Part shown: piece by piece, positions 4,277 to 58,552 of the stretch | Layout of the letters: the number at the start of each line of letters is the position of its first letter | Position numbering within the stretch: the first letter of the stretch is position 1 | Assembly (NCBI GenBank): GCA_964565515.1 | Contig: CAZMFA010000001.1 | Location: 1 to 60,048, forward strand | DNA length: 60,048 nucleotides | Direction of reading: 5' to 3' | Origin: an uncultured Candidatus Saccharibacteria bacterium | GTDB taxonomy: Bacteria > Patescibacteriota > Minisyncoccia > UBA6257 > GWB1-50-10 | The notes under the pieces: generated by a model | What the model was told of the DNA's origin: nothing | The model's database searches: none | Seen by the model: only the letters and a program-made list of their open reading frames with translations | Translations under genes and position numbers: made by a program

Positions 4277-5506
4277 ATGGCAAAGAGGACAAGAAAAGTT
4301 TCCAAAAGGAAGAGTGCGGTTTCGAGAGAAGGAAAGGTTAAAAAAATGGACGGCATCACGAAGATCAAGGTGGTCGGTGTCGGCGGTTGCGGCGGGAATG
4401 TCGTAACGCGAATGATGATGGGGGAGCGCCCGCGCGGCGTCGAATTCGTCGCCGTGAACACCGACAAGCAGGATTTGGATTATACGTTGGCGCATAAGAA
4501 GCTGTACATCGGAAAAGCTTTAACGCGGGGTTTGGGGGCCGGCATGAATCCGGAGATAGGGAAGCAAGCAGCCGAAGAAAACCGATCGGAAATCGGGGAA
4601 GTGCTCGAAGGGGCCGACATCATTTTTTTGGCGGCCGGGATGGGCGGCGGAACGGGAACCGGTGCGACGCCGGTCATCGCCGAGATCGCGAGAGAAAAAG
4701 GAATCCTAACGCTCGCGGTCGTTACAAAACCGTTTTCATTCGAGGGTACGCAACGAATGACCATTGCTCAAGACGGCATTAACCGCCTTCGAGAAAAAGT
4801 CGATTCGTTGGTCGTGATTCCGAACGATCGCATTTTTACCATCATTCAAAAAGATACGCCGGTCACGAAAGCATTCTCGTATATTGACGATGTCTTGAAG
4901 CAAGCAGTAAGAGCTCTCTCGGAACTCATTAATATGCCGGGGATCATCAATGTCGACTTTGCGGACATCAAATCGATTTTAAAAGAAGCCGGAACGACCC
5001 TGATCGGCATCGGCACTGCATCGGGGCAAGATCGAGGAATCAAAGCAGTGGGGTCCGCCATCAACTCGCCGCTTCTTGAAGTGACGCTTGACGGCGCGAA
5101 GGGAGTGCTCTTTTCGATCGCCGGCACGAGAGACTTGAGAATGTCGGAGATCAACGACATCGCAAAAGCAATCTCGGCAAATCTCGATTCGGGAGCGAAA
5201 GTCATTTTTGGAGCGTACCACGATCGGACGTTGAAAGATAAAGCGATCAAAGTGACGGTCATTGCAACCGGCTTCAACGGAATGTTTTCCGAAAAGCGCG
5301 CCGTACCAAACCTCTTTATGGTGAGCGAGCCGAAGGCGGGGGGAGAAAATCAAAGTAAGAGGGGAGAAGAACCGAAAAAACAAGCGAACGTCGAAGCGGT
5401 CGTTGAATTGGAAACGGAGGAATCGGAGCATCCGACGAAAGGAAACAAAGTGGAAAAACAGGAGCCGTGGGAAATACCCGCATTCCTCAGAAAAAAGAAA
5501 AAATAA
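4277..5506 (+). CDS. ftsZ: Cell division GTPase FtsZ
   Basis: GVGGCGGN, tubulin signature GGGTGTGA, NDR, and C-terminal IPAFLRKKK tail. An alternative start at ATG 4346 would remove a basic 23-aa extension. Confidence 0.95.
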   Translation: MAKRTRKVSKRKSAVSREGKVKKMDGITKIKVVGVGGCGGNVVTRMMMGERPRGVEFVAVNTDKQDLDYTLAHKKLYIGKALTRGLGAGMNPEIGKQAAEENRSEIGEVLEGADIIFLAAGMGGGTGTGATPVIAEIAREKGILTLAVVTKPFSFEGTQRMTIAQDGINRLREKVDSLVVIPNDRIFTIIQKDTPVTKAFSYIDDVLKQAVRALSELINMPGIINVDFADIKSILKEAGTTLIGIGTASGQDRGIKAVGSAINSPLLEVTLDGAKGVLFSIAGTRDLRMSEINDIAKAISANLDSGAKVIFGAYHDRTLKDKAIKVTVIATGFNGMFSEKRAVPNLFMVSEPKAGGENQSKRGEEPKKQANVEAVVELETEESEHPTKGNKVEKQEPWEIPAFLRKKKK

Positions 5507-9183: not shown

Positions 9184-9273
9184 TTTTCCCGACTTCTTTT
9201 TCCCCGACCCCTTTCCCGTTCGAATTCTGCCGGAAACACCTTGATTATTTTGTATTTAAAAATTCTTAGTCTG

Positions 9274-9346
9274 TGCCCCCAGCAGGATTCGAACCTGCGA
9301 CCCACTGCTTAAAAGGCAGGTGCTCTACCAACTGAGCTATAGGGGC
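9274..9346 (-). tRNA. tRNA-Lys (anticodon UUU)
   Basis: Reverse complement folds as a cloverleaf: acceptor GCCCCTA/TGGGGGC, D arm GCTC-AGTTGGTA-GAGC, anticodon loop CTTTTAA, T arm GCAGG-TTCGAAT-CCTGC. CCA is not encoded. Confidence 0.9.
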
Positions 9347-9457: not shown

Positions 9458-9713
9458 TCTCCGGTAGCTCAGCGGTAGAGCGGCTCCCTGTCGAGTAAGG
9501 CAGCGTTGCGCAGCAATGCGCAAATGAAAATCGGGCTAATTCGGGGAACTCTCGCAAGAGACAATCCCGAGCTAAGTTCTCGCCTATGGCGGGATAAATG
9601 TGTAGAGACTATATACCCGGGTCCCCACGTGGGACATGAGATAGTCCAGACCTTTTGGTGACAGAAGGACAACTGTAAGGAGATGGTCGTAGGTTCGATC
9701 CCTACCCGGAGAG
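9458..9713 (+). tRNA. tRNA-Asn (anticodon GUU) interrupted by a 184-nt intron between positions 35 and 36
   Basis: Exon 1 (9458..9491): TCTCCGG TA GCTC AGCGGTA GAGC G GCTCC CTGT. Exon 2 (9676..9713): TAA GGAGA TGGTC GTAGG TTCGATC CCTAC CCGGAGA G. The spliced loop CUGUUAA and discriminator G73 are as in bacterial tRNA-Asn. Confidence 0.85.
9492..9675 (+). ncRNA. Group I intron (IC3-like, no ORF)
   Basis: 5' splice site follows a U that pairs as U.G with the IGS GGCAG (9499..9503). P2 is TTGCGCA-GCAA-TGCGCAA. P4 is TCGGGG/TCCCGA, with A-rich J4/5. P5 is TCTC-GCAA-GAGA. P6 is CTCGCC-tat-GGCGGG. The core string GUGUAGAGACUA is present. P7 is GACTA/TAGTC, P8 is GTCCC/GGGAC, and the terminal G is at 9675. 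Confidence 0.8.
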
Positions 9714-9717
9714 CACT

Positions 9718-9810
9718 AAACCCCCGACCCCCGTCTGGGACACCCTCGGGTTTCCCATCAGCCGCACTTCCGTGCGGCTCCTTCCAAGATGGGGGTTTAG
9801 TTTTTCTTTT
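9718..9810 (+). terminator. Structured trailer and probable terminator after tRNA-Asn
   Basis: Outer stem AAACCCCC/GGGGGTTT (9718..9725 / 9791..9798) encloses the 8-bp hairpin AGCCGCAC-ttcc-GTGCGGCT, followed by AGTTTTTCTTTT. Confidence 0.4.
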
Positions 9811-9897
9811 GCGAAGCAAAAGAATGAAGCGGCGAGCCGGAGTATCGCAGATACCCGGAGAGCAAGCGAGTGAAATACAAAAGCGCCATCAGCGGCG

Positions 9898-9933
9898 TAA
9901 AAAAATAGCGGGAACCTTCGAGGGAAGGTTCCC
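9898..9933 (-). terminator. Intrinsic terminator of the 9941..10585 gene
   Basis: GGGAACCTTC-gagg-GAAGGTTCCC 10-bp stem; on the minus strand it is followed by GCTATTTTTTT. Confidence 0.8.
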
Positions 9934-9940
9934 GTTTCCA

Positions 9941-10585
9941 TTATTTTTTCTCCACCTCCATCCGCTTCATCTCGAGGATGAGTCGCATCCCTTCCTTGTG
10001 GAGAAAAAGCTCCATGAAGGGATAGATCAAGACCCCGTCCTTGTTGTAAACAAGGACGTTTCCGTCGATGAAAGGATCCCCAGCCTTGTTGGAACTCGAT
10101 ATCTTGTAAATCAGTGGGTGAAGTGGGTCCTGAGAAACGCGGAAGGTCACCGAGTCCTTCCAGAGCACGAAGTGATCACAGAGAGAATCGGGGCCGTCTA
10201 GGGAAAAGAATTCCCTCACGTCTTTCACGAAACGAATAACATCGCTCCGCAACGAATCTCTTTTCAACGGATTGAGCGGGAAATGAGGGGGGTCTATGAA
10301 TGAGTAGACGGTGGTATCCGAAGAGACCGACAGCCATTTCCTTCCGTCTTTGTTTCCCAGGAACATCTGAAAATCGTTGTTGCCTGAGGGGCCGACATCG
10401 ATTTCCCGGTAATCCAGATGGCTGGGTGCAATGCCGAGAAATTGGCTCGCCCAACCCAAGAACCCCGAAAGGGAAACCGTATACTCCGCGGTCAAAACCG
10501 TTGTATCGGCATTGGTGCGCTGGAAACATTTCTGCGGCCCGGACAAAAGGAAGAATCCCGAGAGTGTGAGGAAGAGAAGGTACAT
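9941..10585 (-). CDS. Hypothetical secreted or membrane-anchored protein
   Basis: N-terminal hydrophobic signal (MYLLFLTLSGFFLLSG), GGAGG Shine-Dalgarno 4 nt upstream, own terminator. No family recognised. Confidence 0.6.
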   Translation of the reverse strand: MYLLFLTLSGFFLLSGPQKCFQRTNADTTVLTAEYTVSLSGFLGWASQFLGIAPSHLDYREIDVGPSGNNDFQMFLGNKDGRKWLSVSSDTTVYSFIDPPHFPLNPLKRDSLRSDVIRFVKDVREFFSLDGPDSLCDHFVLWKDSVTFRVSQDPLHPLIYKISSSNKAGDPFIDGNVLVYNKDGVLIYPFMELFLHKEGMRLILEMKRMEVEKK

Positions 10586-10652: not shown

Positions 10653-11003
10653 TCAAGTATTGCTCCTCGTGATCGTGATACTCGGGACGCCGTTCTTCCA
10701 GACGGCCGTTTTCTTGATGGTCACTTCCGTGGATTTTATCCTCTTGTCTTCGAGAATTTTCCCCGCGATGTCTTCGGCCAGGGCTTCGATGAGATAGCGG
10801 CTTGGCCCTTCGATGACTGCGCGGATTTTGTTGCGAACCCCGCTGTAGTCGAGTGTGTCGGTTATCTTGTCGCTCAAGCCGGCCTTCTTTGCGTCGAAGC
10901 TCAAGTCCGCTTCAATGAGGAACTCCTGCTCGACGTTCCGTTCATCGCCCCCGACGCCGTGCTTCCCGCGGAAGAAAAGACCGGTGATGCGTATGTGATC
11001 CAT
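10653..11003 (-). CDS. folB: Dihydroneopterin aldolase
   Basis: MDHIRITGLFFRGKHGVGGDERNVEQEFLIEADL...DTLDYS...IEALAEDIA matches the FolB pattern. Start moved to ATG 11003 (ORF track begins at 11108). TACAAT lies 6 nt upstream. Confidence 0.8.
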   Translation of the reverse strand: MDHIRITGLFFRGKHGVGGDERNVEQEFLIEADLSFDAKKAGLSDKITDTLDYSGVRNKIRAVIEGPSRYLIEALAEDIAGKILEDKRIKSTEVTIKKTAVWKNGVPSITITRSNT

Positions 11004-11026
11004 GGACTTATTGTAGCAAACCGAGG

Positions 11027-11069
11027 CAGTGAAGCCGGCTTCAGTAGTAATGGTATAGTGAAGGTATGG
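11027..11069. repeat. Left copy of a perfect 43-bp inverted repeat (partner at 12182..12224)
   Basis: CAGTGAAGCCGGCTTCAGTAGTAATGGTATAGTGAAGGTATGG is the exact reverse complement of 12182..12224. Contains the 14-bp palindrome TGAAGCCGGCTTCA (11030..11043). Confidence 0.95.
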
Positions 11070-11247
11070 GAAAACCGTCACCGTTATCGCACATCGCCTT
11101 TCGACCATCGTGAAAATGGACCGGACCGTCGTCGTCCAGAACGGTGCGATCGTGGCGGAAGGAACACGCCAGGATCTCCTGAAGCGGGAAGGCTTATACC
11201 GGAAACTTTGGAATATCCAGGCGGGGGGATTCCGCGATGCGGATTGA
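11062..11247 (+). pseudogene. 3' remnant of an ABC-transporter ATPase gene (MsbA/exporter type), N-terminus missing
   Basis: The frame opens right after a TGA inside the repeat and reads RYGKTVTVIAHRLSTIVKMDRTVVVQNGAIVAEGTRQDLLKREGLYRKLWNIQ..*. This is the H-loop and C-terminal tail only, with no Walker A/B or signature motif upstream. Confidence 0.75.
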
Positions 11248-11271
11248 CCCGCTTTGCCCCGATGTTAGAAT
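11244..11271 (+). promoter_or_regulatory. Promoter TTGACC-N16-TAGAAT, 6 nt before ATG 11278 (leaderless layout)
   Basis: Near-consensus hexamers; the -35 overlaps the stop of the ABC remnant. Confidence 0.6.
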
Positions 11272-11277
11272 ATCTCC

Positions 11278-11979
11278 ATGAATCCCAAGAAGGCGCCATT
11301 TCAGCAGCCGGAGATCGAAGGGCCGCTTGAGACCGCGGTTGAAAAAGCCATGCGCGGCGAAATAGCGTGGGAAGAAGAAGCCGAAGAGACACTCCCGCTC
11401 TATGATAAGGAAGCGGAAAAAATAAGCGAAGAGCTCAAAAATATCAAGGACGCCCCGAAGGAATATCGGGAGCTTTTGGTCCGGAGGTTCAAGGAACGGC
11501 TCAAGCGGCGTGTGGAGGGTCTGGCGGCGGTTCAGGCGGGCGCTATTGCGGCAATCGAAAAGAATCCTGACATTTCGAAGGATGCTCTCCTGGAATCAGT
11601 CAAGAAGCTCGGATCCCGGTACGGCATGACGAAGGATCAGGAGGAGACGGCGGAATCACTCGTCGATCTCTACGAATTGAGGCATAAAAAAATCGGGGAA
11701 ATACGGCAGCGGTATCCCAAGGATCGCGATCTTTTTAAGGTCTTGTTTGGGAGGAACTCCGAGGGGAAAGTCGAGATTATCGATGGTCCGATGACGTTTT
11801 ACGTGCGGTGCGAAAATCTCGACGATTACGCCTTTATTTGTAATCGGAAATTCCTGAACGGCGGGAATATCGAACCCTCGGACCGGGAGCGGGCAAGATC
11901 GACGCGGCTGCCGCGGAATCGCACGCCCTCGCGGATGAGCATTCTTTTCTTCGCCGGCAAGCCGCCCTTCGCCGAGTAG
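11278..11979 (+). CDS. Hypothetical protein (charged, helical N-terminal half); 3' end uncertain
   Basis: 233-aa ORF with a strong promoter. The last ~50 codons are antisense to the MGMT gene and may not be native. Confidence 0.5.
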   Translation: MNPKKAPFQQPEIEGPLETAVEKAMRGEIAWEEEAEETLPLYDKEAEKISEELKNIKDAPKEYRELLVRRFKERLKRRVEGLAAVQAGAIAAIEKNPDISKDALLESVKKLGSRYGMTKDQEETAESLVDLYELRHKKIGEIRQRYPKDRDLFKVLFGRNSEGKVEIIDGPMTFYVRCENLDDYAFICNRKFLNGGNIEPSDRERARSTRLPRNRTPSRMSILFFAGKPPFAE

Positions 11980-12185
11980 CCGGTTAGGGCCCCGTCCGCC
12001 GCGACCACGCGATGGCAAGGGACGATAGGCGCCTGAGGATTTGTTTTCATGAAATACCCGACGGCACGGGCGGCGCGGGGATTTCCCGCAAGACGGGCGA
12101 CTTGTCCGTACGTCGCGACTTTCCCCTTGGGGATTCGCCTCGCGATCGCGTACACTTTTTCGCGGAACGACGGTGTTTTTTCCAT
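11826..12185 (-). CDS. MGMT-family (O6-alkylguanine-DNA alkyltransferase DNA-binding domain) protein, copy 1
   Basis: IPKGKVATYGQVA..GNPRAARAVG...PCHRVV active-site motif. About 18-aa C-terminal extension relative to copy 2. TATAGT lies 6 nt upstream of the ATG. Confidence 0.85.
   Translation of the reverse strand: MEKTPSFREKVYAIARRIPKGKVATYGQVARLAGNPRAARAVGYFMKTNPQAPIVPCHRVVAADGALTGYSAKGGLPAKKRMLIREGVRFRGSRVDLARSRSEGSIFPPFRNFRLQIKA
12001..12091. repeat. 91-bp tract identical to 13459..13549 (inside MGMT copy 1)
   Basis: Exact direct repeat. Flanking coding sequence of the two paralogs is clearly diverged. Confidence 0.95.
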
Positions 12186-12224
12186 ACCTTCACTATACCA
12201 TTACTACTGAAGCCGGCTTCACTG
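12182..12224. repeat. Right copy of the 43-bp inverted repeat; divergent promoter region between MGMT copy 1 and the Nudix gene
   Basis: Reverse complement of 11027..11069. Includes the MGMT start codon (12183..12185), its TATAGT box, and the palindrome at 12208..12221, which abuts the TGGACA -35 of the Nudix gene. Confidence 0.95.
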
Positions 12225-13328: not shown

Positions 13329-13643
13329 TTATCTCTTCCAGCGCGATTTTCGAAGGTCCACGCGGGCGCCGCGGAACGACACCCCTTCCTTGCGGAGTAT
13401 GAGCTCCTTTTTCTTCAATCCTCCTTCGGTTGAATAGCCGGTCAAAGCACCGTTCGCGGCGACCACGCGATGGCAAGGGACGATAGGCGCCTGAGGATTT
13501 GTTTTCATGAAATACCCGACGGCACGGGCGGCGCGGGGATTTCCCGCAAACCGCGCAAGATCGCCGTAGGTTGCAACCTTGCCTTTCGGTATCTTTTGAG
13601 CTATTTGGTAAACCTTTTCGCGAAAGGAAAATTCCTTTTTCAT
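13329..13643 (-). CDS. MGMT-family protein, copy 2
   Basis: IPKGKVATYGDLA..GNPRAARAVG..PCHRVV. Start placed at MKKEFSFREKVY by alignment with copy 1 (ORF track extends to 13697). Confidence 0.85.
   Translation of the reverse strand: MKKEFSFREKVYQIAQKIPKGKVATYGDLARFAGNPRAARAVGYFMKTNPQAPIVPCHRVVAANGALTGYSTEGGLKKKELILRKEGVSFRGARVDLRKSRWKR
13459..13549. repeat. 91-bp tract identical to 12001..12091 (inside MGMT copy 2)
   Basis: Exact direct repeat. Confidence 0.95.
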
Positions 13644-15872: not shown

Positions 15873-17350
15873 TGAGCGATAAGTGGCGGTGGTGGGTTCT
15901 GGGGACGGTCATTTTCGGGACCTTTTTGGGGCGTTTGGATCAAACGGTGGTCAACTTGGCGCTTCCGAAGATCATCGGTGATTTTTCGATCTCCGTTTCG
16001 GCGGCCGCTTGGATATCGACCGCTTATATCCTGGCGAACGCGATCTTCGTCCCTATTTGGGGAAAGCTGGGGGACGTTGCCGGCCGGAAGAAGATCTATC
16101 TGATCGGCTTCATCGGCTTCATTGTCGCGTCAGGTCTTTGTGCGATTGCCTGGAATTTAACCTCCATGATCGTCTTTCGGATTATCCAAGGATTCGCCGT
16201 TTCTGCCGATTACCCAACGGCCATGGCGATCCTTGCCGTCACTTTTACCAATCCCAAAGAACGCGCCGAGGCTTTGGGGCTTTGGTCCGCCGCCTTTGCC
16301 GTTGCGTCGGTCTTCGGCCCGCTCATGGGGGGGCCCTTGATCGATAATTTCAATTGGCGGGCCGTCTTTTTTGTGAACATTCCGCTTGGGATCATCGGTC
16401 TCTTTCTCGCACTCACATTTATTAAGGAGTCCGTAGGAGAAAAACGGCAGACGCATTTTGATTGGTGGGGAGCATCGGCATTGGGTGCCGCGCTTTTTGC
16501 GCTCACCTTGGTCCTCGATCGGGGGCAGACGTGGGGATGGTTGTCGGCGGGGAGCATCGTTTCCTATGCCGCTTTTACGCTTTTTATGGGGCTCTTCATT
16601 GCAATCGAGTACCACGAAACCGAGCCGATCGTCGATTTGAAATTCTTCAAGATCAAGGCGTTCGTCTTTTCGCTTCTCAATACGTTCATTGTTTTCATGG
16701 CCATGATGGGAAGCGTCTTTTTAATCCCCATATTCGCCGAAACGTTCCTCGGATACGATGCGACGAAGACCGGCTACCTCTTTATTCCCATGGCCGTTTT
16801 TCTGATGGGTGCCGCCGCTTTGGGCGGTAAGCTTGTGGGGAAAGTGCAGTCCCGCTACGTCATCTTTTGGGGGACGATCATCGCGTCGATTGCATTTTTC
16901 ATGTTCGGCGGGATCGATCCGCGATGGGGGGCCTTGGCCATCATGGTGCCGATGAGCGTCATGTCATTCGGTTTGGGGTTCGGCATGGCTCAACGGACGA
17001 ACATCGTGGCAAGTTCGGTGCCGGAACGGGAAGTGGGAGAAGCATCGGCGATTCTCGCTCTCGTCAGAAACATTGCCGGTGCATTCGGCATCGCCGTTTT
17101 CAGCACGGTACTCGACAATGCGACGAATGCCAATGTCTTTGCGATCGCCCAAAACAGTTTCCTTCGGATCGTAAACCCGGAGAATCTCCAGCAATTCATC
17201 GGCCTTATTACTTTGAAGGCGGAAGTTGCGGGATATGCTGCGGTTTTCATAGCCGCCGGCGTCGTGATCCTCCTCGGATCCTTTACGGCGCTCTTAATCA
17301 AGCTGCCGCACGAAACGAAAGCAAAGGGAGAAATCGCAATGTTCGATTAA
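15872..17350 (+). CDS. MFS transporter, DHA2 (EmrB/QacA, 14-TMS) family
   Basis: LDQTVVNLALPKI, GKLGDVAGRKK motif A, about 14 hydrophobic segments. Confidence 0.85.
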   Translation: MSDKWRWWVLGTVIFGTFLGRLDQTVVNLALPKIIGDFSISVSAAAWISTAYILANAIFVPIWGKLGDVAGRKKIYLIGFIGFIVASGLCAIAWNLTSMIVFRIIQGFAVSADYPTAMAILAVTFTNPKERAEALGLWSAAFAVASVFGPLMGGPLIDNFNWRAVFFVNIPLGIIGLFLALTFIKESVGEKRQTHFDWWGASALGAALFALTLVLDRGQTWGWLSAGSIVSYAAFTLFMGLFIAIEYHETEPIVDLKFFKIKAFVFSLLNTFIVFMAMMGSVFLIPIFAETFLGYDATKTGYLFIPMAVFLMGAAALGGKLVGKVQSRYVIFWGTIIASIAFFMFGGIDPRWGALAIMVPMSVMSFGLGFGMAQRTNIVASSVPEREVGEASAILALVRNIAGAFGIAVFSTVLDNATNANVFAIAQNSFLRIVNPENLQQFIGLITLKAEVAGYAAVFIAAGVVILLGSFTALLIKLPHETKAKGEIAMFD

Positions 17351-18189
17351 GCGCGGTAACGCCCTCCGTGCCGTCGTATGAAACCCTCGCGGAGGAGTTC
17401 GTCGACGATGGGAACGAGATCCGCCTCCGGCTTTCCGGTTTCCCGCGAGAGCCCGGGAAGTGTGAAGGAAGAAGAAAGGAGGAGTTTCAACAGTTCGCCG
17501 CGGATTTGCCGATGCGACCCCTCGAAACGGGGTTGTTTCGCGTAATGCGCGCTCTTGCGGTTCGGATTTTTCCCCTTGGTGCCGAGCAGGGATCCGTAAT
17601 CCATAAGCGCAGAGTACCACCGGCGGGGATTTTTGCGGTCGAGCGTGAATTCTACAAGCGGCAGGATATCGCAATCGCTCACCGTTTTTTCGTCCTTAAA
17701 GAAGGCATCAATGAACGTCCGGCGGATGTTCGTTTCAATGAAGGGAACGGGAAGATTGTAGGCATAAGCAAGGATTGCCCCGGCGGTTGCCTTTCCAATC
17801 CCCGGCAGTTTTGAAAGCTCGTCCGGATTTCGGGGAAGTCGCCCGCCGTATTTCTCAACGACCTCCCGCGCCGTTTTTTGGAGATTGAGTGCCCGCCGGT
17901 TGTACCCGAGGCCTTGCCAAGTCTTAAGGATTTTCTTCGATCGGGCCTCGGCAAGGCTTCGCCACGAGGGGAATACCTTGAGGAATCGCGGGTAGTAGTA
18001 TGCGGCGCGGGAAACTTGGGTTTGCTGGAGCATGATTTCGGAAACCACGATGCGGTAGGGGGTGATATCCTTGCGCCACGGAAGATCGCGCCCGCAGGTG
18101 CGGTAAAAATCGAGGATTTTCCCTTGGAACGCCGCTTTTTGGCGGTTGGTCAGTTTAACGCCCTTCATGCTTGGTAAGCATTGTACCAT
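17347..18189 (-). CDS. MutY-like HhH-GPD adenine DNA glycosylase lacking the 4Fe-4S cysteines and the MutT-like domain
   Basis: RDLPWRKDITPYRIVVSEIMLQQTQV, HhH LPGIGKATAGAILAYAYN, catalytic Asp in ALMDYGS. No CX6CX2CX5C motif; the C-terminus looks wHTH-like. Confidence 0.75.
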   Translation of the reverse strand: MVQCLPSMKGVKLTNRQKAAFQGKILDFYRTCGRDLPWRKDITPYRIVVSEIMLQQTQVSRAAYYYPRFLKVFPSWRSLAEARSKKILKTWQGLGYNRRALNLQKTAREVVEKYGGRLPRNPDELSKLPGIGKATAGAILAYAYNLPVPFIETNIRRTFIDAFFKDEKTVSDCDILPLVEFTLDRKNPRRWYSALMDYGSLLGTKGKNPNRKSAHYAKQPRFEGSHRQIRGELLKLLLSSSFTLPGLSRETGKPEADLVPIVDELLREGFIRRHGGRYRA

Positions 18190-37606: not shown

Positions 37607-37616
37607 GGAGGGATGA

Positions 37617-37686
37617 ATCCCGTTAAAAACCGCAAACTTATGAAAGAGATAATCACCCATGAAAAAGGCGTTTTGTTTCTAACGGG
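37617..37686. mobile_element. Copy B (short, 70 bp) of the TIR element family, flanked by ATGA on both sides
   Basis: ATGA|ATCCCGTTAAAAACCGC...GGCGTTTTGTTTCTAACGGG|ATGA. The right end abuts the DUF763 start codon. Confidence 0.6.
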
Positions 37687-38874
37687 ATGAAGCGCGGCAT
37701 TGCCACATTCACACTCGACGAAGGAAAATGCCCTCCGTGGCTTTTTGAACGCATGGTGAAACTCGGCAGGGATATGATAAAGATCCTCATCGCCGAGTAT
37801 GGACCGGACGAATTCGTGCGGCGCATGGCGGACCCGGTATGGTTTCAGTCCTTAGGCACGGTTCTCGCGTTCGATTGGAACGCGTCCGGCCTCACGACGA
37901 TCTTGACCGCGGCCCTCAAGGAAGCGATCCGCCACGAGGAATGGGAACTCGGGGTATTCATTTGCGGCGGGAAGGGCAAGACCTCGCGGCAAACGCCCGA
38001 CGAGATTCTCCGATGGGGGGAAAAGATCGGCATGAGCGACAAAAAAACCAATGCTTTGGTTTACAACTCGAAGATGAGCGCGAAAGTGGACAGCGCGCTG
38101 GTCCAGGACGGCTTCCAGATCTATCACCACAGCTTCATGTTTTCGCGGAACGGCGCTTGGACCGTCGTCCAGCAGGGGATGAACACGGAAAACCAGACCG
38201 CGCGGCGGTATCACTGGTTTTCAGAAAACGTCCACGATCTGGTGTGCGAGCCGCATTCCGGCATAGCTTCCAAAAAATTCGACAAGGACGTCTTGAATAT
38301 GGTTGCGAAGCAGAGCGGCGGAAGCCGTAATATGTCGGTGGAGCTGGTCAATGCCAATTACAATACCCTCATGAAAGACGTGACGATTCTCCGAAAACAT
38401 TTCTCCCGGTATTCCAACATGATCGCTCTCGGCAACGGCAAGGAACAGCTGACGCTTCTCGATCTCGACCGGGGAGAGTTCAACTATCATCCGATGATCC
38501 ATGAGAATTTCACGATGAATAAATATTTGGATAAAGTTTTGCAGGAAGTTTCCTTTCAAAAGCCGGAGAATTACGAAAAGCTGGTCTCCTTGAAAGGCGT
38601 CGGGCCGAAAACGGTTCGGGCCTTGGCTTTGGTCGGTGAAGTCATTTACGGCGTGAAGCCGTCGTATGAAGACCCGGCGCGGTACAGTTTCGCGCACGGC
38701 GGGAAGGACGGTACGCCGTACCCCGTCGATGTCAAGACCTATGACGAGACGATCGCGATCTTGAAGCAAGCGGTCTCAAAGACCCGTTGGAATCAGAGTG
38801 AAAAGAAGAAGGCGGCAAATAAACTCGAAAATAATCAGGATTACCCCTCGAAGTGGGGAACGATGAGCTTTTGA
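37687..38874 (+). CDS. DUF763 family protein (contains a helix-hairpin-helix-like GVGPKTVRALAL segment)
   Basis: N-terminus GKCPPWLFERM...DPVWFQSLGTVLAFDWNASGLTT matches my recollection of DUF763. Confidence 0.65.
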   Translation: MKRGIATFTLDEGKCPPWLFERMVKLGRDMIKILIAEYGPDEFVRRMADPVWFQSLGTVLAFDWNASGLTTILTAALKEAIRHEEWELGVFICGGKGKTSRQTPDEILRWGEKIGMSDKKTNALVYNSKMSAKVDSALVQDGFQIYHHSFMFSRNGAWTVVQQGMNTENQTARRYHWFSENVHDLVCEPHSGIASKKFDKDVLNMVAKQSGGSRNMSVELVNANYNTLMKDVTILRKHFSRYSNMIALGNGKEQLTLLDLDRGEFNYHPMIHENFTMNKYLDKVLQEVSFQKPENYEKLVSLKGVGPKTVRALALVGEVIYGVKPSYEDPARYSFAHGGKDGTPYPVDVKTYDETIAILKQAVSKTRWNQSEKKKAANKLENNQDYPSKWGTMSF

Positions 38875-46845: not shown

Positions 46846-46850
46846 CATGA

Positions 46851-46970
46851 GTCCCGTTAGAAATCGCGTACGCAAATCATAAGAGAAAACATGAAAACCC
46901 AATCAGTCGAATATTTCAAAAATAATCTACGCAAAACGCGAGCATGCGTATGCGTACTATTTCTAACGGG
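46851..46970. mobile_element. Copy C (120 bp) of the TIR element family, flanked by ATGA on both sides
   Basis: ATGA|GTCCCGTTAGAAATCGCGTACGC...GCGTATGCGTACTATTTCTAACGGG|ATGA. Sits between the ABC ATPase and permease genes. Confidence 0.65.
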
Positions 46971-48215
46971 ATGAGGTTCAATGACGCATTCAAAACGGCG
47001 CTGCGGAACGTAGGACATTCGAAAATGCGCTCATTCCTCACGATCCTGGGAATCGTGATCGGCGTTGCGTCGGTCATCATTCTGATGTCCGTCGGCCAAT
47101 CGGCGCAGGATTATATCTTGAATCAAGTAAAGGGCGTCGGGTCCAATTTGATCTTCATCATACCGGGCGGCACGGGCGGCTCGAAGTTTTCCGCGCCGGC
47201 ATCGGAACGAGGGGTCTTGATCAAGACGCTCGTGGCGGGGGATGTTACGGCGCTCGAACGGGAGCCGACCATCGCGGCCGTCGCGCCGATCGTGAATGGG
47301 CAAGCGACCGTTGCTTACGGCAACAACGACACATCGGTCCCGTATGAAGGGGTGACGTCCGAATTTTTCCCGATGCGGAATTTCGGCGTCTCGGCGGGAA
47401 GGATATTCAATCAGTCTGACATCGATTCTTCGAATCGGGTCGTGATCCTCGGTTCGACCGTCGCAAAAACGCTCTTCGGCGGCGTGACCCCGGTCGGGAA
47501 GTTCGTTCGCGTGCAAAACGTTCCACTCCAAGTGGTGGGTGTTTTGACGGACGAAGGAGTGGGGCCGGGAGGGATCGATCAGAACAATATGGTTTTGATT
47601 CCCGTGACCGTTGCGCAAAACCAACTCCTTGGCATCAATTACTATAATTATATTTTGGTTCAGGCGAACAGCTCTTACGACATCAGTTTCGTGACAGCGC
47701 GGGTGAAGACGGTCTTGAGGCAAACGCATCACATTACAGATCCGGTGAAGGATGATTTCACGGTCGAAACGCAAGCCGACATCCTTTCCATTTTAGGGAA
47801 TATCACGTCCGTCATGACCATCTTCCTCACGGCGATCGCGTCGATCTCGCTCATCGTCGGCGGCATCGGGATCATGAATATCATGCTCGTATCGGTCGTC
47901 GAACGGACGCGGGAGATCGGTCTCCGGAAGGCGGTCGGCGCAACGACGGCGGACATCTTGCGCCAGTTTTTGATCGAAGCGACGCTCTTAACGCTCCTCG
48001 GGGGCATCGTGGGGATCTTGCTCGGCGGACTCGTGACTTTCGGGGCATACCTCGTGATCGCAAAGCTTTTGAATGTCGCATGGACGTTTGCCTTGCCCTT
48101 CGGCGCCGTCATACTCGGCGCCGGCGTCTCGATCTTGGTCGGATTGGTCTTCGGGTTTTATCCCGCACGCCAAGCTGCCCGCAAAAGCCCGATTGAGGCA
48201 TTGCATTATGAATAG
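46971..48215 (+). CDS. MacB-type ABC transporter permease (FtsX domain)
   Basis: N-terminus MRFNDAFKTALRNVGHSKMRSFLTILGIVIGV; MacB periplasmic domain plus a C-terminal FtsX 3-TM bundle. The ORF track start at 46944 lies inside the element. Confidence 0.85.
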   Translation: MRFNDAFKTALRNVGHSKMRSFLTILGIVIGVASVIILMSVGQSAQDYILNQVKGVGSNLIFIIPGGTGGSKFSAPASERGVLIKTLVAGDVTALEREPTIAAVAPIVNGQATVAYGNNDTSVPYEGVTSEFFPMRNFGVSAGRIFNQSDIDSSNRVVILGSTVAKTLFGGVTPVGKFVRVQNVPLQVVGVLTDEGVGPGGIDQNNMVLIPVTVAQNQLLGINYYNYILVQANSSYDISFVTARVKTVLRQTHHITDPVKDDFTVETQADILSILGNITSVMTIFLTAIASISLIVGGIGIMNIMLVSVVERTREIGLRKAVGATTADILRQFLIEATLLTLLGGIVGILLGGLVTFGAYLVIAKLLNVAWTFALPFGAVILGAGVSILVGLVFGFYPARQAARKSPIEALHYE

Positions 48216-56227: not shown

Positions 56228-57532
56228 ATGTTCAATAAAATCAGCCCGAAGAGATTACTTTTCATCATCGCGATCATCGCAGTGGCGGCTGGCATTTTTG
56301 ACTATCAGCCACTGTGGGGAACGATCTCGAATTTCCGGCCTTGGAATCTCGGTCTGGATTTGGCGGGAGGAAGCGTCTTGACGTATGATATCAATCTCTC
56401 AAAAGTACCGCCGGCAGATGAACAGTCCGTCGTGAACGGTCTTCGGGATGTCATTGAAAAGAGGGTGAACCTCTTCGGCGTTTCCGAGCCCAAGGTTTAT
56501 GTTGAAACTGTGGGGACGAACGAACGGCTGGTCGTGGAACTTGCAGGCATCAAGGATGTCAATCAGGCCATTCAAGAAATCGGCGCAACGCCGTTCTTGG
56601 ATTTTCGAGAGGTTCAAGAAATTCCAGCGACGTCGACGGGGGCACTTTCAACCTCTTCCACGTCGACCCTTGCCGGCCAAAACCTCGCCTTCATTCCGAC
56701 CGACTTGAACGGCAGATATGTTGTCGGAGCTCAAATGTCTTTCAATTCGGTGACCAATCAGCCCCAAGTGGACATCGAGTTCAATTCGGAAGGCGCAACC
56801 TTGTTTCAAAACTTGACGGCAAAGAATGTCGGAAAACCCATTGCAATTTTTTTAGACGGCCAGTTGATCGAAATGCCGGTGGTTCAAGAGACGATAACCG
56901 GCGGGAAGGCCGAAATAACGGGGAACTTCACGGTTCAAACCGCTCAAACGCTCGTTGAGCGGTTCAATGCCGGCGCCCTTCCGGCCCCCATCACGCTCGT
57001 GAATCAGCAAACGATAAGCCCCAACTTCGGGAAAAACGCGCTCGATACGGCGATCTTGGCAGGCGTCATCGGGACTTTAGCGGTCATGGTCTTCATGCTC
57101 TTGTACTACAAGAAACTTGGCATCTTCGCATCGGTGGCTCTCCTTATCTATATCGCCATCACGCTCGCCATTTTCAAGATTGTGCCGGTCACGATGACTT
57201 TGTCGGGAATCGCCGGATTCATTCTTTCGATTGGCATGGCTGTCGACGCGAACGTTTTGGTCTTCGAGCGGACGAAAGAAGAGCTCCAGCGCGGCTTGAG
57301 CCATGCTTCCGCAGTCGAGGAAGGATTCAAGCGGGCATGGACATCCATTCGGGATTCGAACGTGTCAACTCTCATTACATCGGCCGTCCTTTACTATTTC
57401 ACGTCGAGCTTCGTGCAAGGTTTTGCCTTATCCCTTTTTATCGGCGTTCTCGTGAGCTTGTTTTCGGCCATCACTACTACGCGAACGCTCCTCAGGGTTT
57501 TTGAGAGTCGCGAAAAGAAACAAGTGGCATGA
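56228..57532 (+). CDS. secD: Protein translocase subunit SecD
   Basis: LGLDLAGG, periplasmic domain, and C-terminal 6-TM region with GIAGFILSIGMAVDANVLVFER. Confidence 0.9.
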   Translation: MFNKISPKRLLFIIAIIAVAAGIFDYQPLWGTISNFRPWNLGLDLAGGSVLTYDINLSKVPPADEQSVVNGLRDVIEKRVNLFGVSEPKVYVETVGTNERLVVELAGIKDVNQAIQEIGATPFLDFREVQEIPATSTGALSTSSTSTLAGQNLAFIPTDLNGRYVVGAQMSFNSVTNQPQVDIEFNSEGATLFQNLTAKNVGKPIAIFLDGQLIEMPVVQETITGGKAEITGNFTVQTAQTLVERFNAGALPAPITLVNQQTISPNFGKNALDTAILAGVIGTLAVMVFMLLYYKKLGIFASVALLIYIAITLAIFKIVPVTMTLSGIAGFILSIGMAVDANVLVFERTKEELQRGLSHASAVEEGFKRAWTSIRDSNVSTLITSAVLYYFTSSFVQGFALSLFIGVLVSLFSAITTTRTLLRVFESREKKQVA

Positions 57533-57655
57533 ATCCCGTTAGAAATCGCGTACGCGCATCATCACGAAGAAACAATATGGATAAAGAACTAATAAAAATG
57601 GTCAAAGGCAATATACGCAAAGCGCGTTCCGCGTATGCGTACTATTTCTAACGGG
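57533..57655. mobile_element. Copy D (123 bp) of the TIR element family, flanked by ATGA on both sides
   Basis: ATGA|ATCCCGTTAGAAATCGCGTACGC...GCGTATGCGTACTATTTCTAACGGG|ATGA. The 14-bp perfect TIR is ATCCCGTTAGAAAT/ATTTCTAACGGGAT. Sits between secD and secF. Confidence 0.65.
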
Positions 57656-58552
57656 ATGAAATTTTTGAACGTCGTAGAAAACAGAAAATACTATTTATCG
57701 TTCGCTGCCGTCATTGTTGCGGCGAGCTGGCTCGGCGTTATCTTCCTCGGCTTGAAGCCCGGGATCGATCTTTCGGGGGGAACCGAGTGGCAAGTTGCGT
57801 TCACCAGCGGAAATGTTTCGGTCTCTGAGGTACAATCGGCGCTTTCGTCCGCGGGGCTTCGGGAGCTCGCGGTGAGGAGCCTCGGGCCGAACCAATTCGA
57901 CGTCGAAACGCCGGAAATGAGCGAAGCCGACCATCAAAAATATGCCGATGTATTGAAGGCGAAAATCGGAAACTTCAACGACGAAAATTTTTCGAGTATC
58001 GGCCCCACGGTGGGAAGCGAGCTGGCGCACAAATCGATGACCGCCATCATCCTCGTTTTGGTCGGGATTTCGCTCTATATCGCGTACGCTTTTCGGAAAG
58101 TTTCGGAGCCGGTCAAATCGTGGAAGTACGGGTTGATAACGCTTGCGACGCTCGTCCACGACGTTTCCATTCCAGCGGGTTTTTTGGCGCTCCTCGGATT
58201 TTTCAAGGGCGTTGAAATAGATACCAACTTCATCGTGGCGCTTTTGGTCATTATGGGCTTTTCCGTTCACGATACCATCGTTGTTTTCGACCGGATCCGG
58301 GAAAATCTTTTGGTGGCTCGGGGAAAGAAGACCCCGCTTGCGGAGGTCATCGATTACAGCGTCCGGGAAACGTTTGCGAGGTCTGTAAACACGTCCTTCA
58401 CGCTCGTCTTGGTCCTTGTTGCGCTCATCGTATTCGGTCCGCAATCCCTCTTTTATTTCATCCTTACGATACTGATCGGTACTCTTTTTGGCACCTATTC
58501 TTCCATATTCGTCGCGAGCCCCCTTTTGTACCTTTGGCAGAAGAAAGACTAG
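57656..58552 (+). CDS. secF: Protein translocase subunit SecF
   Basis: MKFLNVVENRKYYLSF N-terminus, GIDLSGGTEW, FSVHDTIVVFDRIRE. The ORF track start at 57635 lies inside the element. Confidence 0.9.
   Translation: MKFLNVVENRKYYLSFAAVIVAASWLGVIFLGLKPGIDLSGGTEWQVAFTSGNVSVSEVQSALSSAGLRELAVRSLGPNQFDVETPEMSEADHQKYADVLKAKIGNFNDENFSSIGPTVGSELAHKSMTAIILVLVGISLYIAYAFRKVSEPVKSWKYGLITLATLVHDVSIPAGFLALLGFFKGVEIDTNFIVALLVIMGFSVHDTIVVFDRIRENLLVARGKKTPLAEVIDYSVRETFARSVNTSFTLVLVLVALIVFGPQSLFYFILTILIGTLFGTYSSIFVASPLLYLWQKKD

Follow-up and report, generated by a model that had tools for sequence, protein, structure and literature searches.

Bacterial MITEs (miniature inverted-repeat transposable elements), such as Correia/NEMIS of Neisseria and the Rickettsia palindromic elements, are short, non-coding, multicopy sequences with inverted termini that duplicate their target, form hairpins in mRNA, are tolerated near or inside transcription units, and originate by internal deletion of a coding element. 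Here, we describe a family of repeats that is like them in these respects and that was recognized in a 60,048-nucleotide stretch of DNA from an uncultured Candidatus Saccharibacteria bacterium (contig CAZMFA010000001.1, positions 1 to 60,048; this whole stretch is called the window below). The family differs from known MITEs in that its partner is a 277-bp element encoding a GIY-YIG nuclease and not a DDE insertion sequence, in that insertion falls on a start codon, which is rebuilt by the terminal base of the element, and in that the termini occur across many phyla, not in one genus. Four repeats in the window, copies A to D, are true insertions of a miniature mobile element. We favor the reading, at a probability of roughly 0.7, that they are non-autonomous MITE copies of a widespread, very small mobile family to which the 277-bp nuclease form belongs, and that this nuclease moves the elements. 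The initial annotation of this DNA knew of no described element with such behavior, and in the full-text literature searched (subscription-only papers lay outside the search) no published description was found. The enzymology of the family is inferred.

GIY-YIG homing genes, such as those for the T4 Seg proteins and I-TevI-type enzymes, are likewise selfish nuclease-gene units that lie between host genes and use host expression signals. Homing endonucleases, however, have at least 200 amino acids (aa) and separate DNA-binding modules, lack inverted termini and target duplications, enter only the cognate allelic site, and have no MITE-like derivatives, whereas the family described here has a bare 86-aa catalytic domain, inverted termini, and a 4-bp duplication and is found at many unrelated genes. 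Homing endonucleases also do not recognize their own mobile DNA (PMC1564403). In fold and in its minimal single-domain architecture, the nuclease is like the UPF0213/Slx1-like proteins (BH0048, 1zg2; EF2693, 1ywl; COG2827), whose stand-alone branch is the GIY-YIG domain in a minimal form with unknown function (Dunin-Horkawicz et al., PMC1564403); nothing in the literature searched tied this group to inverted termini, duplications, or mobility.

REPIN/RAYT systems and IS200/IS605 palindromes are short intergenic hairpin repeats as well, thought to be moved by a single small nuclease-type protein, but they make no target duplication and their HUH tyrosine transposase is encoded outside the repeat, whereas here a duplication is present and the nuclease is encoded inside the termini. 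No HUH Y1 protein recurred among the neighbors of our copies, as judged by BLAST recurrence only, with no Pfam scan. The piggyBac/IS1380 elements share short inverted termini that start with CCC and duplicate a 4-bp T..A tetranucleotide (TTAA), but they measure 1.5 to 2.5 kb and use TTAA, compared with 277 bp and R-TNNR or ATGRR sites in the present family. The piggyBac ends (CCCTAGAAAG, with a TTAA duplication) and the IS1380 ends (CC..., with 4 to 5 bp) look similar to those seen here; the idea of kinship found no support.

Insertions at start codons in the window

Element boundaries were defined as Y plus CCCGTTAGAAA on the left and TTTCTAACGGG plus R on the right, and the termini common to the four window copies read (A/G)TCCCGTTAGAAA ... 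TTTCTAACGGGA. All four copies named in the initial annotation are present, at coordinates that were off by 1 to 8 nt. A 15-nt degenerate terminus pattern gave five matches in the window and none in 100 shuffles, and a paired-terminus pattern matched copies C and D and nothing in shuffled sequence.

We searched for relatives by SecF identity (94%, 83%, and 80%) and compared their contigs with the window. Copy D (57534-57656, + strand) is a 123-bp non-coding element at the secD/secF junction. In the relative L242 (83% identical SecF), the same junction reads ...ccgcATGAAATTTTTGAACGTCGT, which is the window sequence minus the 123-bp element and one TGAA; the empty site gcATGAAATTTTTG is present. 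Copy C (46852-46971, + strand; 120 bp) lies between the genes for a MacB-type ATPase and its permease; the macB junction of L244 and L245 has the sequence ...ccATGAGATTCAAC, with the empty copy C site ATGAGATTCAAC (macB ATGAGATTC). Junctions in the relatives with 83% and 80% identical SecF were uninterrupted, matched the window flanks, and carried a single TGAA or TGAG. The element termini were absent from the 14- to 21-kb loci examined in these relatives, which indicates that the window lineage gained its copies recently. The site is A-TGAA before insertion and A-TGAA-(T CCCG...CGGG A)-TGAA after it, and in four of four window copies the downstream ATG takes its A from the final base of the element. 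At 70 to 123 bp, non-coding, and with 12- to 14-bp inverted termini, the copies have the form of MITEs. The proposal of a MITE-like mobile insertion, together with the suggestion that relatives be checked for an empty secD/secF site, was therefore borne out by the single-TGAA junctions and by the sharp 4-bp duplication described below.

The same junctions bear on a different explanation, named in advance as what would overturn mobility: a conserved, vertically inherited intercistronic RNA hairpin with a regulatory or processing role. RNA folding is favorable for copies B, C, and D (z = -3.7, -6.0, and -4.2 against shuffles), and the copies lie inside operons at translation starts, as such an RNA would. 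It is refuted by the orthologous junctions of close relatives that lack the element. Further evidence against it comes from the direct 4-bp repeats that form the flanks, the unconserved interiors, the absence of an Rfam match at gathering thresholds at any of the four copies (the window gave one tRNA and one group I intron), and the presence of the same termini around a protein-coding gene in the long form. We consider it scarcely credible. Copy A has decayed and forms no hairpin (z = +0.4), so the claim that every copy folds holds for the other three.

The inverted termini of copy D form the perfect 14-bp repeat that had been reported when one flanking base per end is included (ATCCCGTTAGAAAT / ATTTCTAACGGGAT, 57533-57546 and 57644-57657). 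The left TGAA duplication (57530-57533, + strand) doubles at 57530-57532 as the secD stop codon, and the original secF ATG was made up of A57529 and the first bases of this duplication. The present secF ATG begins with A57656, the final base of the element, and the TG of the right TGAA duplication (57657-57660, + strand) completes the rebuilt start codon at 57656-57658. From the original start, an open reading frame (ORF) of 40 codons (57529-57651, + strand) extends, just as first noted, to a TAA that lies within the right terminus and 4 nt ahead of the secF ATG.

Copy C is flanked by TGAG at 46848-46851 and 46972-46975, and the permease ATG lies at 46971-46973. The frame from its original host ATG (46847-46882) stops after 11 codons; an internal ORF of 27 codons (46891-46974, + strand) ends in a TGA that overlaps the permease ATG. 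Copy B (37618-37687, + strand; 70 bp, with one mismatch in the left terminus) lies ahead of the DUF763 gene, between TGAA duplications at 37614-37617 and 37688-37691. To its left are the host GGAGGG Shine-Dalgarno-like motif and the original ATG (37613-37615), now 74 nt upstream, from which a 25-codon ORF (MNPVKNRKLMKEIITHEKGVLFLTG; 37613-37690, + strand) reads to a TGA overlapping the rebuilt DUF763 ATG at 37687-37689. This is the clearest through-reading ORF in the window. A promoter scan upstream of copy B found no full sigma-70 consensus, and TATAAT and GGAGGG are visible as sequence only. Copy A (1409-1516, + strand; 108 bp) is degenerate and lies between hisS and the HIT gene, with the left terminus TCCCGCGGGAAA and, in the right terminus, CGGA where CGGG is expected. 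Its right duplication is TGGA (1517-1520), whereas decay has changed the left one to CGGA (1405-1408) and thereby turned the original ATG into ACG. The HIT ATG is at 1516-1518; the sole ORF that reaches the TAA of the right terminus is internal (1431-1511).

Pfam confirmed the downstream genes as HIT (A), DUF763 (B), MacB-type permease (C), and SecF (D), and the upstream genes encode HisRS (A), uracil-DNA glycosylase (B), the MacB-type ATPase (C), and SecD (D). Two statements of the initial annotation hold in all four copies: the right terminus abuts the ATG of the next gene, and insertion regenerates that start codon, from the terminal A and the duplicated TG. Its reading of the flanks has to be revised. 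Copies B, C, and D literally show ATGA on both sides, but what is truly repeated are the 4 bp that follow the A (TGAA, TGAG, and TGAA), the right-hand A being the terminal base of the element; the duplication is TGAA, TGAG, or TGGA, and neither ATGA nor GA is the target. Native ATGA overlaps of stop and start codons do occur at 1950, 8878 (minus strand), and 24403, but the start codon itself is the target and not such an overlap, since copy B has no upstream gene at its junction and the TAA upstream of copy C ends 1 nt before the ATG. An ORF reaching the right end exists in every copy, as had been stated, with the qualification that in A and C these ORFs are internal only.

A repeat finder and alignment divided the window copies into two subfamilies, A/B and C/D, with little in common beyond the ends. 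Integron attC sites were ruled out: the GTTAGAA and TTCTAAC cores occur in the order opposite to that of attC, and the flanking genes are housekeeping genes.

Further observations were made at the secD/secF locus. In the closest relative, L241, the junction at 4700-4725 reads gcATGAATACAAAAATGAAATTT, that is, TGAA-T-ACAAAA-A-TGAA, with both TGAA copies, the terminal T and A of the element, and ACAAAA between them (a 12-nt remnant). It may be an excision footprint, an in-place deletion or last remnant of the same insertion, or unrelated. In L242, an IS1595-family DDE transposase gene (10913-11713) directly follows secF, and an IS3-type pair (helix-turn-helix plus rve, 16979-18042) lies a few kb beyond; L243 is arranged likewise, and these genes are absent from the window and from L244. 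The public SecF call for the window starts at an ATG inside copy D (57635-58552; MRTISNG plus SecF, 305 aa) and is 7 codons too long, and the only public contig with a 305-aa SecF product (L250, Logan; 1.2 kb) ends 2 nt before ATG 57635. The SecF product as delimited here has no public record. Such repeats thus distort start calls and break assemblies, as the miscall and the contig end within copy D illustrate.

A widespread family with a 277-bp coding form

The family was surveyed with two scans. Short copies were sought with a two-gap pattern for both termini in one genome per species, and long forms with a metagenome search for the length class of about 277 bp; each scan yielded at least 120 loci, and the counts of short and long copies given from here on refer to copies among the matches listed. 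The common anatomy consists of 12- to 14-bp inverted termini, Y-CCCGTTAGA(A/G)A ... T(Y)TCTAACGGG-R, at insertion sites of the form R-TNNR with a 4-bp duplication. Hosts, as labelled in the records, were many Patescibacteria classes, Deltaproteobacteria, Pirellulales and other Planctomycetota, Omnitrophota, KSB1, WOR-3, Thermodesulfovibrionales, and others, and some short-copy matches were on contigs of 0.3 to 1.2 Mb. The family is not confined to the lineage of the window, its termini being found in many phyla. The outer base pair of the short copies was C:G in 61 and T:A in 56; by the same host labels, T:A copies were almost all from Patescibacteria and C:G copies mostly from other phyla. 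Phages were rejected as carriers, since the family is almost absent from viral contigs (no long forms and three short copies in 2.9 million scanned).

An exact 4-bp direct repeat flanked 74 of the 122 short copies (5 bp in only 1), and an exact 4-bp duplication flanked 46 of 112 long copies. Such a sharp 4-bp peak is what transposition gives.

A longer coding copy, which the initial annotation had suggested looking for, was found in other loci as a 277-bp form with the same ends. The first two such units seen, from Omnitrophota and Saccharibacteria genomes, measured 276 to 279 bp and held a small protein between the termini; the modal length was 277 bp and the listed elements ranged from 253 to 309 bp. 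The only gene of the long form encodes an 86-aa stand-alone GIY-YIG nuclease of the Slx1/UPF0213 type, which was intact (about 86 aa) in 89 of 121 elements and broken in the other 32. The protein, taken from these other loci and not from the window, matched Pfam GIY-YIG (PF01541) with E = 6e-19 (cut-off, 22.6 bits). Residues Y3, Y5, Y16-T17, H30, and E50 were invariant and G18, R24/K25/R26, and N31 at least 90% conserved; the catalytic residues (Tyr, Tyr, Arg, His, and Glu) vary little or not at all. Proteins of different copies can be only about 30 to 60% identical (L061 versus L110, 61% by tblastn), and the median ratio of nonsynonymous to synonymous substitution rates (dN/dS) was 0.21 over 242 gene pairs, a value that indicates purifying selection on the nuclease gene. 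The structure model had a predicted local distance difference test (pLDDT) score of 93, and the nearest solved structures were UPF0213 BH0048 and the Slx1 nuclease domain, followed by I-TevI; sequence comparison with 1zg2 (BH0048) showed 35% identity (E = 8e-10). Among 1.84 billion cluster representatives, a profile search returned 19,251 relatives at E <= 1e-3 and 3,993 at 1e-10, annotated publicly only as 'GIY-YIG nuclease family protein' or 'putative endonuclease'.

Gene and termini are interlocked: the C-terminal SLTG of the nuclease (...FLSLTG) is encoded by the terminus of the element, and its start lies 13 to 21 nt inside. Many public gene calls are 95-aa versions that begin with MNPVRD. 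Other calls of 223 to 600 aa (P0262, P0247, and P0258) fuse the nuclease in frame to type IV pilin-like N-termini, with the junctions ...TG-FSTLEVVIAMAIL and ...TG-FTLIEILLALAIL; were such a fusion genuine, the nuclease would stand where a prepilin has its leader peptide. The overlong SecF, the MNPVRD-extended nucleases, and the pilin-like fusions may be counted as annotation errors that the family brings with it. Recent movement of one identical protein, P0169, was considered and rejected, as all 103 contigs represent the same locus of one widespread organism.

We then compared the short copies with the long form. On 19 metagenome contigs, an intact long element is accompanied by one or more short copies, and at these loci the short copies share their termini with the coding element on the same contigs. 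The 81-bp copy of L219 retains the 5' end of its long neighbor, including ATGTGGTAT, and the 3' end AGCGCTTCCTATCTCTAACGGGA, and L110 has a truncated copy with the 5' end of the long element. A short-copy group close to C/D, with termini ...AAATCGCGGACGC ... GCGTCCTATTT, is found in several Patescibacteria genomes, and some C/D-like short copies keep a ...GFGR...ASYF* peptide that resembles the nuclease C-terminus. Copies C and D have in common a subterminal sequence specific to short copies (ATCGCGTACGC..., ...GCGTATGCGTACTAT) that is absent from all nuclease-coding elements. This likeness, at different loci and in several genomes, indicates that short copies spread as short copies and do not arise only by decay in place.

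Some loci have more complex arrangements. In L014, two inverted short copies with their outer flanks (2167-2258 and 4942-5033) bracket a 2.7-kb segment encoding a 686-aa secreted protein, and the flank sequences recur on other contigs of the same bin (L011, L060, and L029); the segment may be a composite unit or a duplicated region. Elements are adjacent or nested in L106 (659-757), L110 (3780-4164), L116 (6598-7099), and L079 (726-846), sometimes with a tetranucleotide common to neighbors, and the family may prefer to insert beside existing copies.

Placement at host genes and open frames

The window copies belong to the T...A subfamily, whose site A-TG(A/G)(A/G) is the start codon of a gene. 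In reconstructed empty sites of T:A copies (n = 72), positions -1 to +3 were A (96%), T (97%), G (89%), A (76%), and A (88%); C:G sites read R, T (96%), N, N, R. An ATG starting an ORF of 80 codons or more adjoined 41 of 55 short T:A copies, and 36 of the 40 long T:A forms had such a host ATG next to them on the 3' side of the nuclease gene. Only 13 of 60 short C:G copies adjoined a GTG opening an ORF of that length, and C:G long forms rarely adjoin genes (4 of 62). Start-codon placement, which had been described as invariable, is therefore a strong rule for one subfamily and not for the whole family: it applies to about 75 to 90% of the Patescibacteria-type T...A subfamily and to about 20% of short and 6% of long C...G copies.

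The nuclease gene pointed toward the host gene in 36 cases and away in none, the host gene never lying on its 5' side. The commonest duplication of T:A long forms was TGAA (21 copies), and the reverse, TTCA, was never seen. The nuclease stop is the TGA of the duplication, read GGA-TGA and overlapping the rebuilt ATG; in one long-form subgroup, it is a TAA inside the terminus, 4 nt upstream of that ATG. In 18 of 33 T:A long copies, the nuclease starts at an ATG 21 nt inside the element and 27 nt after the host ATG, in frame with it, and no Shine-Dalgarno-like motif was evident upstream of the internal nuclease ATG in the T:A sequences compared. From this layout, the element appears to use the host initiation site and to return ribosomes to the host gene through the stop/start overlap.

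Strict orientation is also what one might expect if a homing-type endonuclease cut empty start-codon sites and the element were copied by recombination or microhomology repair, the short copies being mainly in-place decay. As with free-standing homing endonuclease genes, a nuclease is all that the element encodes; the intact copies are oriented 36:0; the 32 broken long-form ORFs attest to decay; and the 12-nt remnant in L241 would fit as well. Homing, however, needs flanking homology and the same allelic site, whereas closely related elements here precede unrelated genes, and it neither creates a 4-bp duplication nor requires inverted termini, both of which accompany the bare domain. The subterminal sequence shared by C/D-type short copies at different loci, recurring in several genomes, is likewise hard to reconcile with it. 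We therefore judge homing to be quite improbable.

As the initial annotation had drawn attention to mini-ORFs reading through the element, we analyzed the 42 start-codon short copies that retain the left ATG. The frame from the host ATG ran to a stop in the terminus or to an in-frame fusion in 22 of 42, compared with 7.1 +/- 2.2 after shuffling of the interiors (maximum, 14 in 200 trials), which confirms an enrichment of through-reading frames. The equivalent antisense frames were open in 12 of 42 and 7 of 42; the other sense frames were uninformative as a control, being always closed by TGA/TAG in the duplication and left terminus. The right terminus is workable in all three frames, with a TGA over the ATG, a TAA 4 nt before it, or an in-frame fusion. 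Apart from residues that the termini encode, the peptides show no conservation, in agreement with the earlier remark, and they do not represent small-protein genes.

The window contains about 105 intergenic sites of the TGAA/TGAG/TGGA type, compared with about 25 suitable start codons, and four of four copies lie at starts. Together with the 96% A at -1 and the 36:0 orientation, this is not explained by tolerance alone.

A candidate mobility factor and what it would mean

Taken together, these data suggest that the GIY-YIG nuclease is probably the mobility factor of the elements, as judged from gene content, selection, and the lack of an alternative. It is the only gene found between the termini, is interlocked with them, is conserved across deep divergence, and co-occurs with deletion derivatives, and no larger element was found: the 1.69 Mb of fetched loci (about 300 copies) contained no 0.5- to 3.5-kb element bounded by the family termini. 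When ORFs of 150 aa or more from 120 loci were compared all against all by BLAST, no neighbor protein recurred. Solo termini, considered as transposon ends, were chance one-mismatch matches beside ordinary genes, and the inverted pair in L014 was discarded as a transposon because it encloses the secreted protein and no transposase. For the further proposition that the 86-aa nuclease alone is the mobility enzyme of an unrecognized class of prokaryotic transposons, present in Patescibacteria, Deltaproteobacteria, Planctomycetota, Omnitrophota, and others, we see an even chance.

The main competitor is a conventional transposon elsewhere in the genome, IS1380/piggyBac-like or an IS5-like DDE element, that mobilizes the short and 277-bp forms in trans, with the nuclease as a passenger. 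Inverted termini together with a 4-bp duplication of constant length are the hallmark of DDE transposition, and a trans-acting transposase need not adjoin the copies, so that its absence from the 8-kb flanks is weak evidence; no DDE/DDD transposase was found within or near the listed copies. The 1.69 Mb, however, held no unit of transposon size with these termini, compared with at least 120 loci for the nuclease form. The nuclease ORF is also built into the termini, which encode its last residues and some of its stops, and has stayed intact at a dN/dS of 0.21 across proteins as divergent as those above, which would be hard for a passive passenger. We find this alternative unlikely, and prefer the nuclease.

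Insertion leaves the host ribosome-binding site and original ATG on the left, while on the right the terminal A and the duplicated TG rebuild an ATG before an intact gene. From its target, the element would thereby obtain transcription, a ribosome-binding site, a start codon, and a stop codon, and ribosomes would be handed to the host gene by termination-reinitiation; translational coupling across the element is what the layout of the frames suggests. Short copies probably arise by internal deletion, about half of them keeping an open frame from the host ATG to a stop, and a translating ribosome could open the hairpin that would otherwise pair with the A of the rebuilt ATG. If the nuclease moves the element, a multimer of it may recognize the termini, which in view of the Slx1-like fold might be paired into a stem, and make 4-nt staggered cuts at R-TNNR, after which host ligation or repair would complete insertion.

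Several points weigh against this interpretation. GIY-YIG nucleases act hydrolytically, and no member is known to join DNA or to serve transposition with target duplication; the 86-aa protein has no obvious DNA-binding module, a basic C-terminal helix aside. The window showed no homology to the nuclease, and no GIY-YIG gene lies within the window. Most long forms have GAGAT termini, compared with GAAAT in the window copies, and the long-form nhmmer profile matches only the terminal 17 to 25 nt of most short copies, those of the window included, so that origin by deletion is shown for few copies (L219, L110, and one subfamily by its peptide). An exact direct duplication is missing in about 25% of the short and 40% of the long copies, and many such copies carry inverted flanking tetranucleotides (TTTA...TGAA), which goes beyond a simple staggered-cut model. 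Short copies with a recognizable 3' end are oriented only 11:4, which suggests that orientation is imposed by selection for nuclease expression and not by the insertion step. The excess at start codons could reflect an intrinsic ATG(A/G)(A/G) specificity, or it could reflect selection rather than targeting. Finally, both scans selected for intact termini and set lengths, and the proportions given here are not an unbiased census.

The inverted flanks were recorded in L139, L149, L158, L169, L176, L200, L207, L130, and others, all of the C:G type, with left flanks of TTTA or TTCA, right flanks of TGAA or TAAA, and no direct duplication. Several closely related C:G elements (synonymous divergence, dS, of 0.06 to 0.3) carry differing flanks.

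Apart from the family, the window contains an Rfam group I intron (9482-9668, + strand; 59 bits against a gathering score of 50, full-length model) near tRNA-Lys (9273-9346, - strand) and outside any tRNA called by ARAGORN, followed by an ORF at 9683-10201 with no Pfam match. A 59-nt inverted repeat (11027-11085 and 12166-12224, 90% complementary) flanks a 233-aa ORF with no Pfam match, and a 240-nt direct repeat (11895-12134 and 13353-13592, 77% identical) recurs 1.46 kb apart; these two repeats may belong to another mobile or duplicated unit.

If the nuclease does move the element, GIY-YIG enzymes would join the DDE, HUH, serine, tyrosine, and Cas1 enzymes as agents of prokaryotic DNA transposition, and part of the large stand-alone Slx1-like/UPF0213 family would gain a function. 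The lower size limit of autonomous mobile elements would drop from about 700 bp to less than 300 bp, the form of about 277 bp being by far the smallest known, and such a size would be possible because promoter, ribosome-binding site, start, and stop are taken from the invaded gene. A nuclease that is compact and recognizes a short, defined DNA sequence may also serve as a tool. GIY-YIG genes are listed in a groundwater study among those predicted to have moved out of Patescibacteria into other bacteria (PMC12455944). For gene exchange of the ultra-small Patescibacteria with other phyla, the family provides a marker and perhaps also a vehicle. It would also represent a new way for a parasite to fit into a compact genome: seated on a start codon, translated from the host's own initiation site, and passing the ribosomes back to the gene it has entered.

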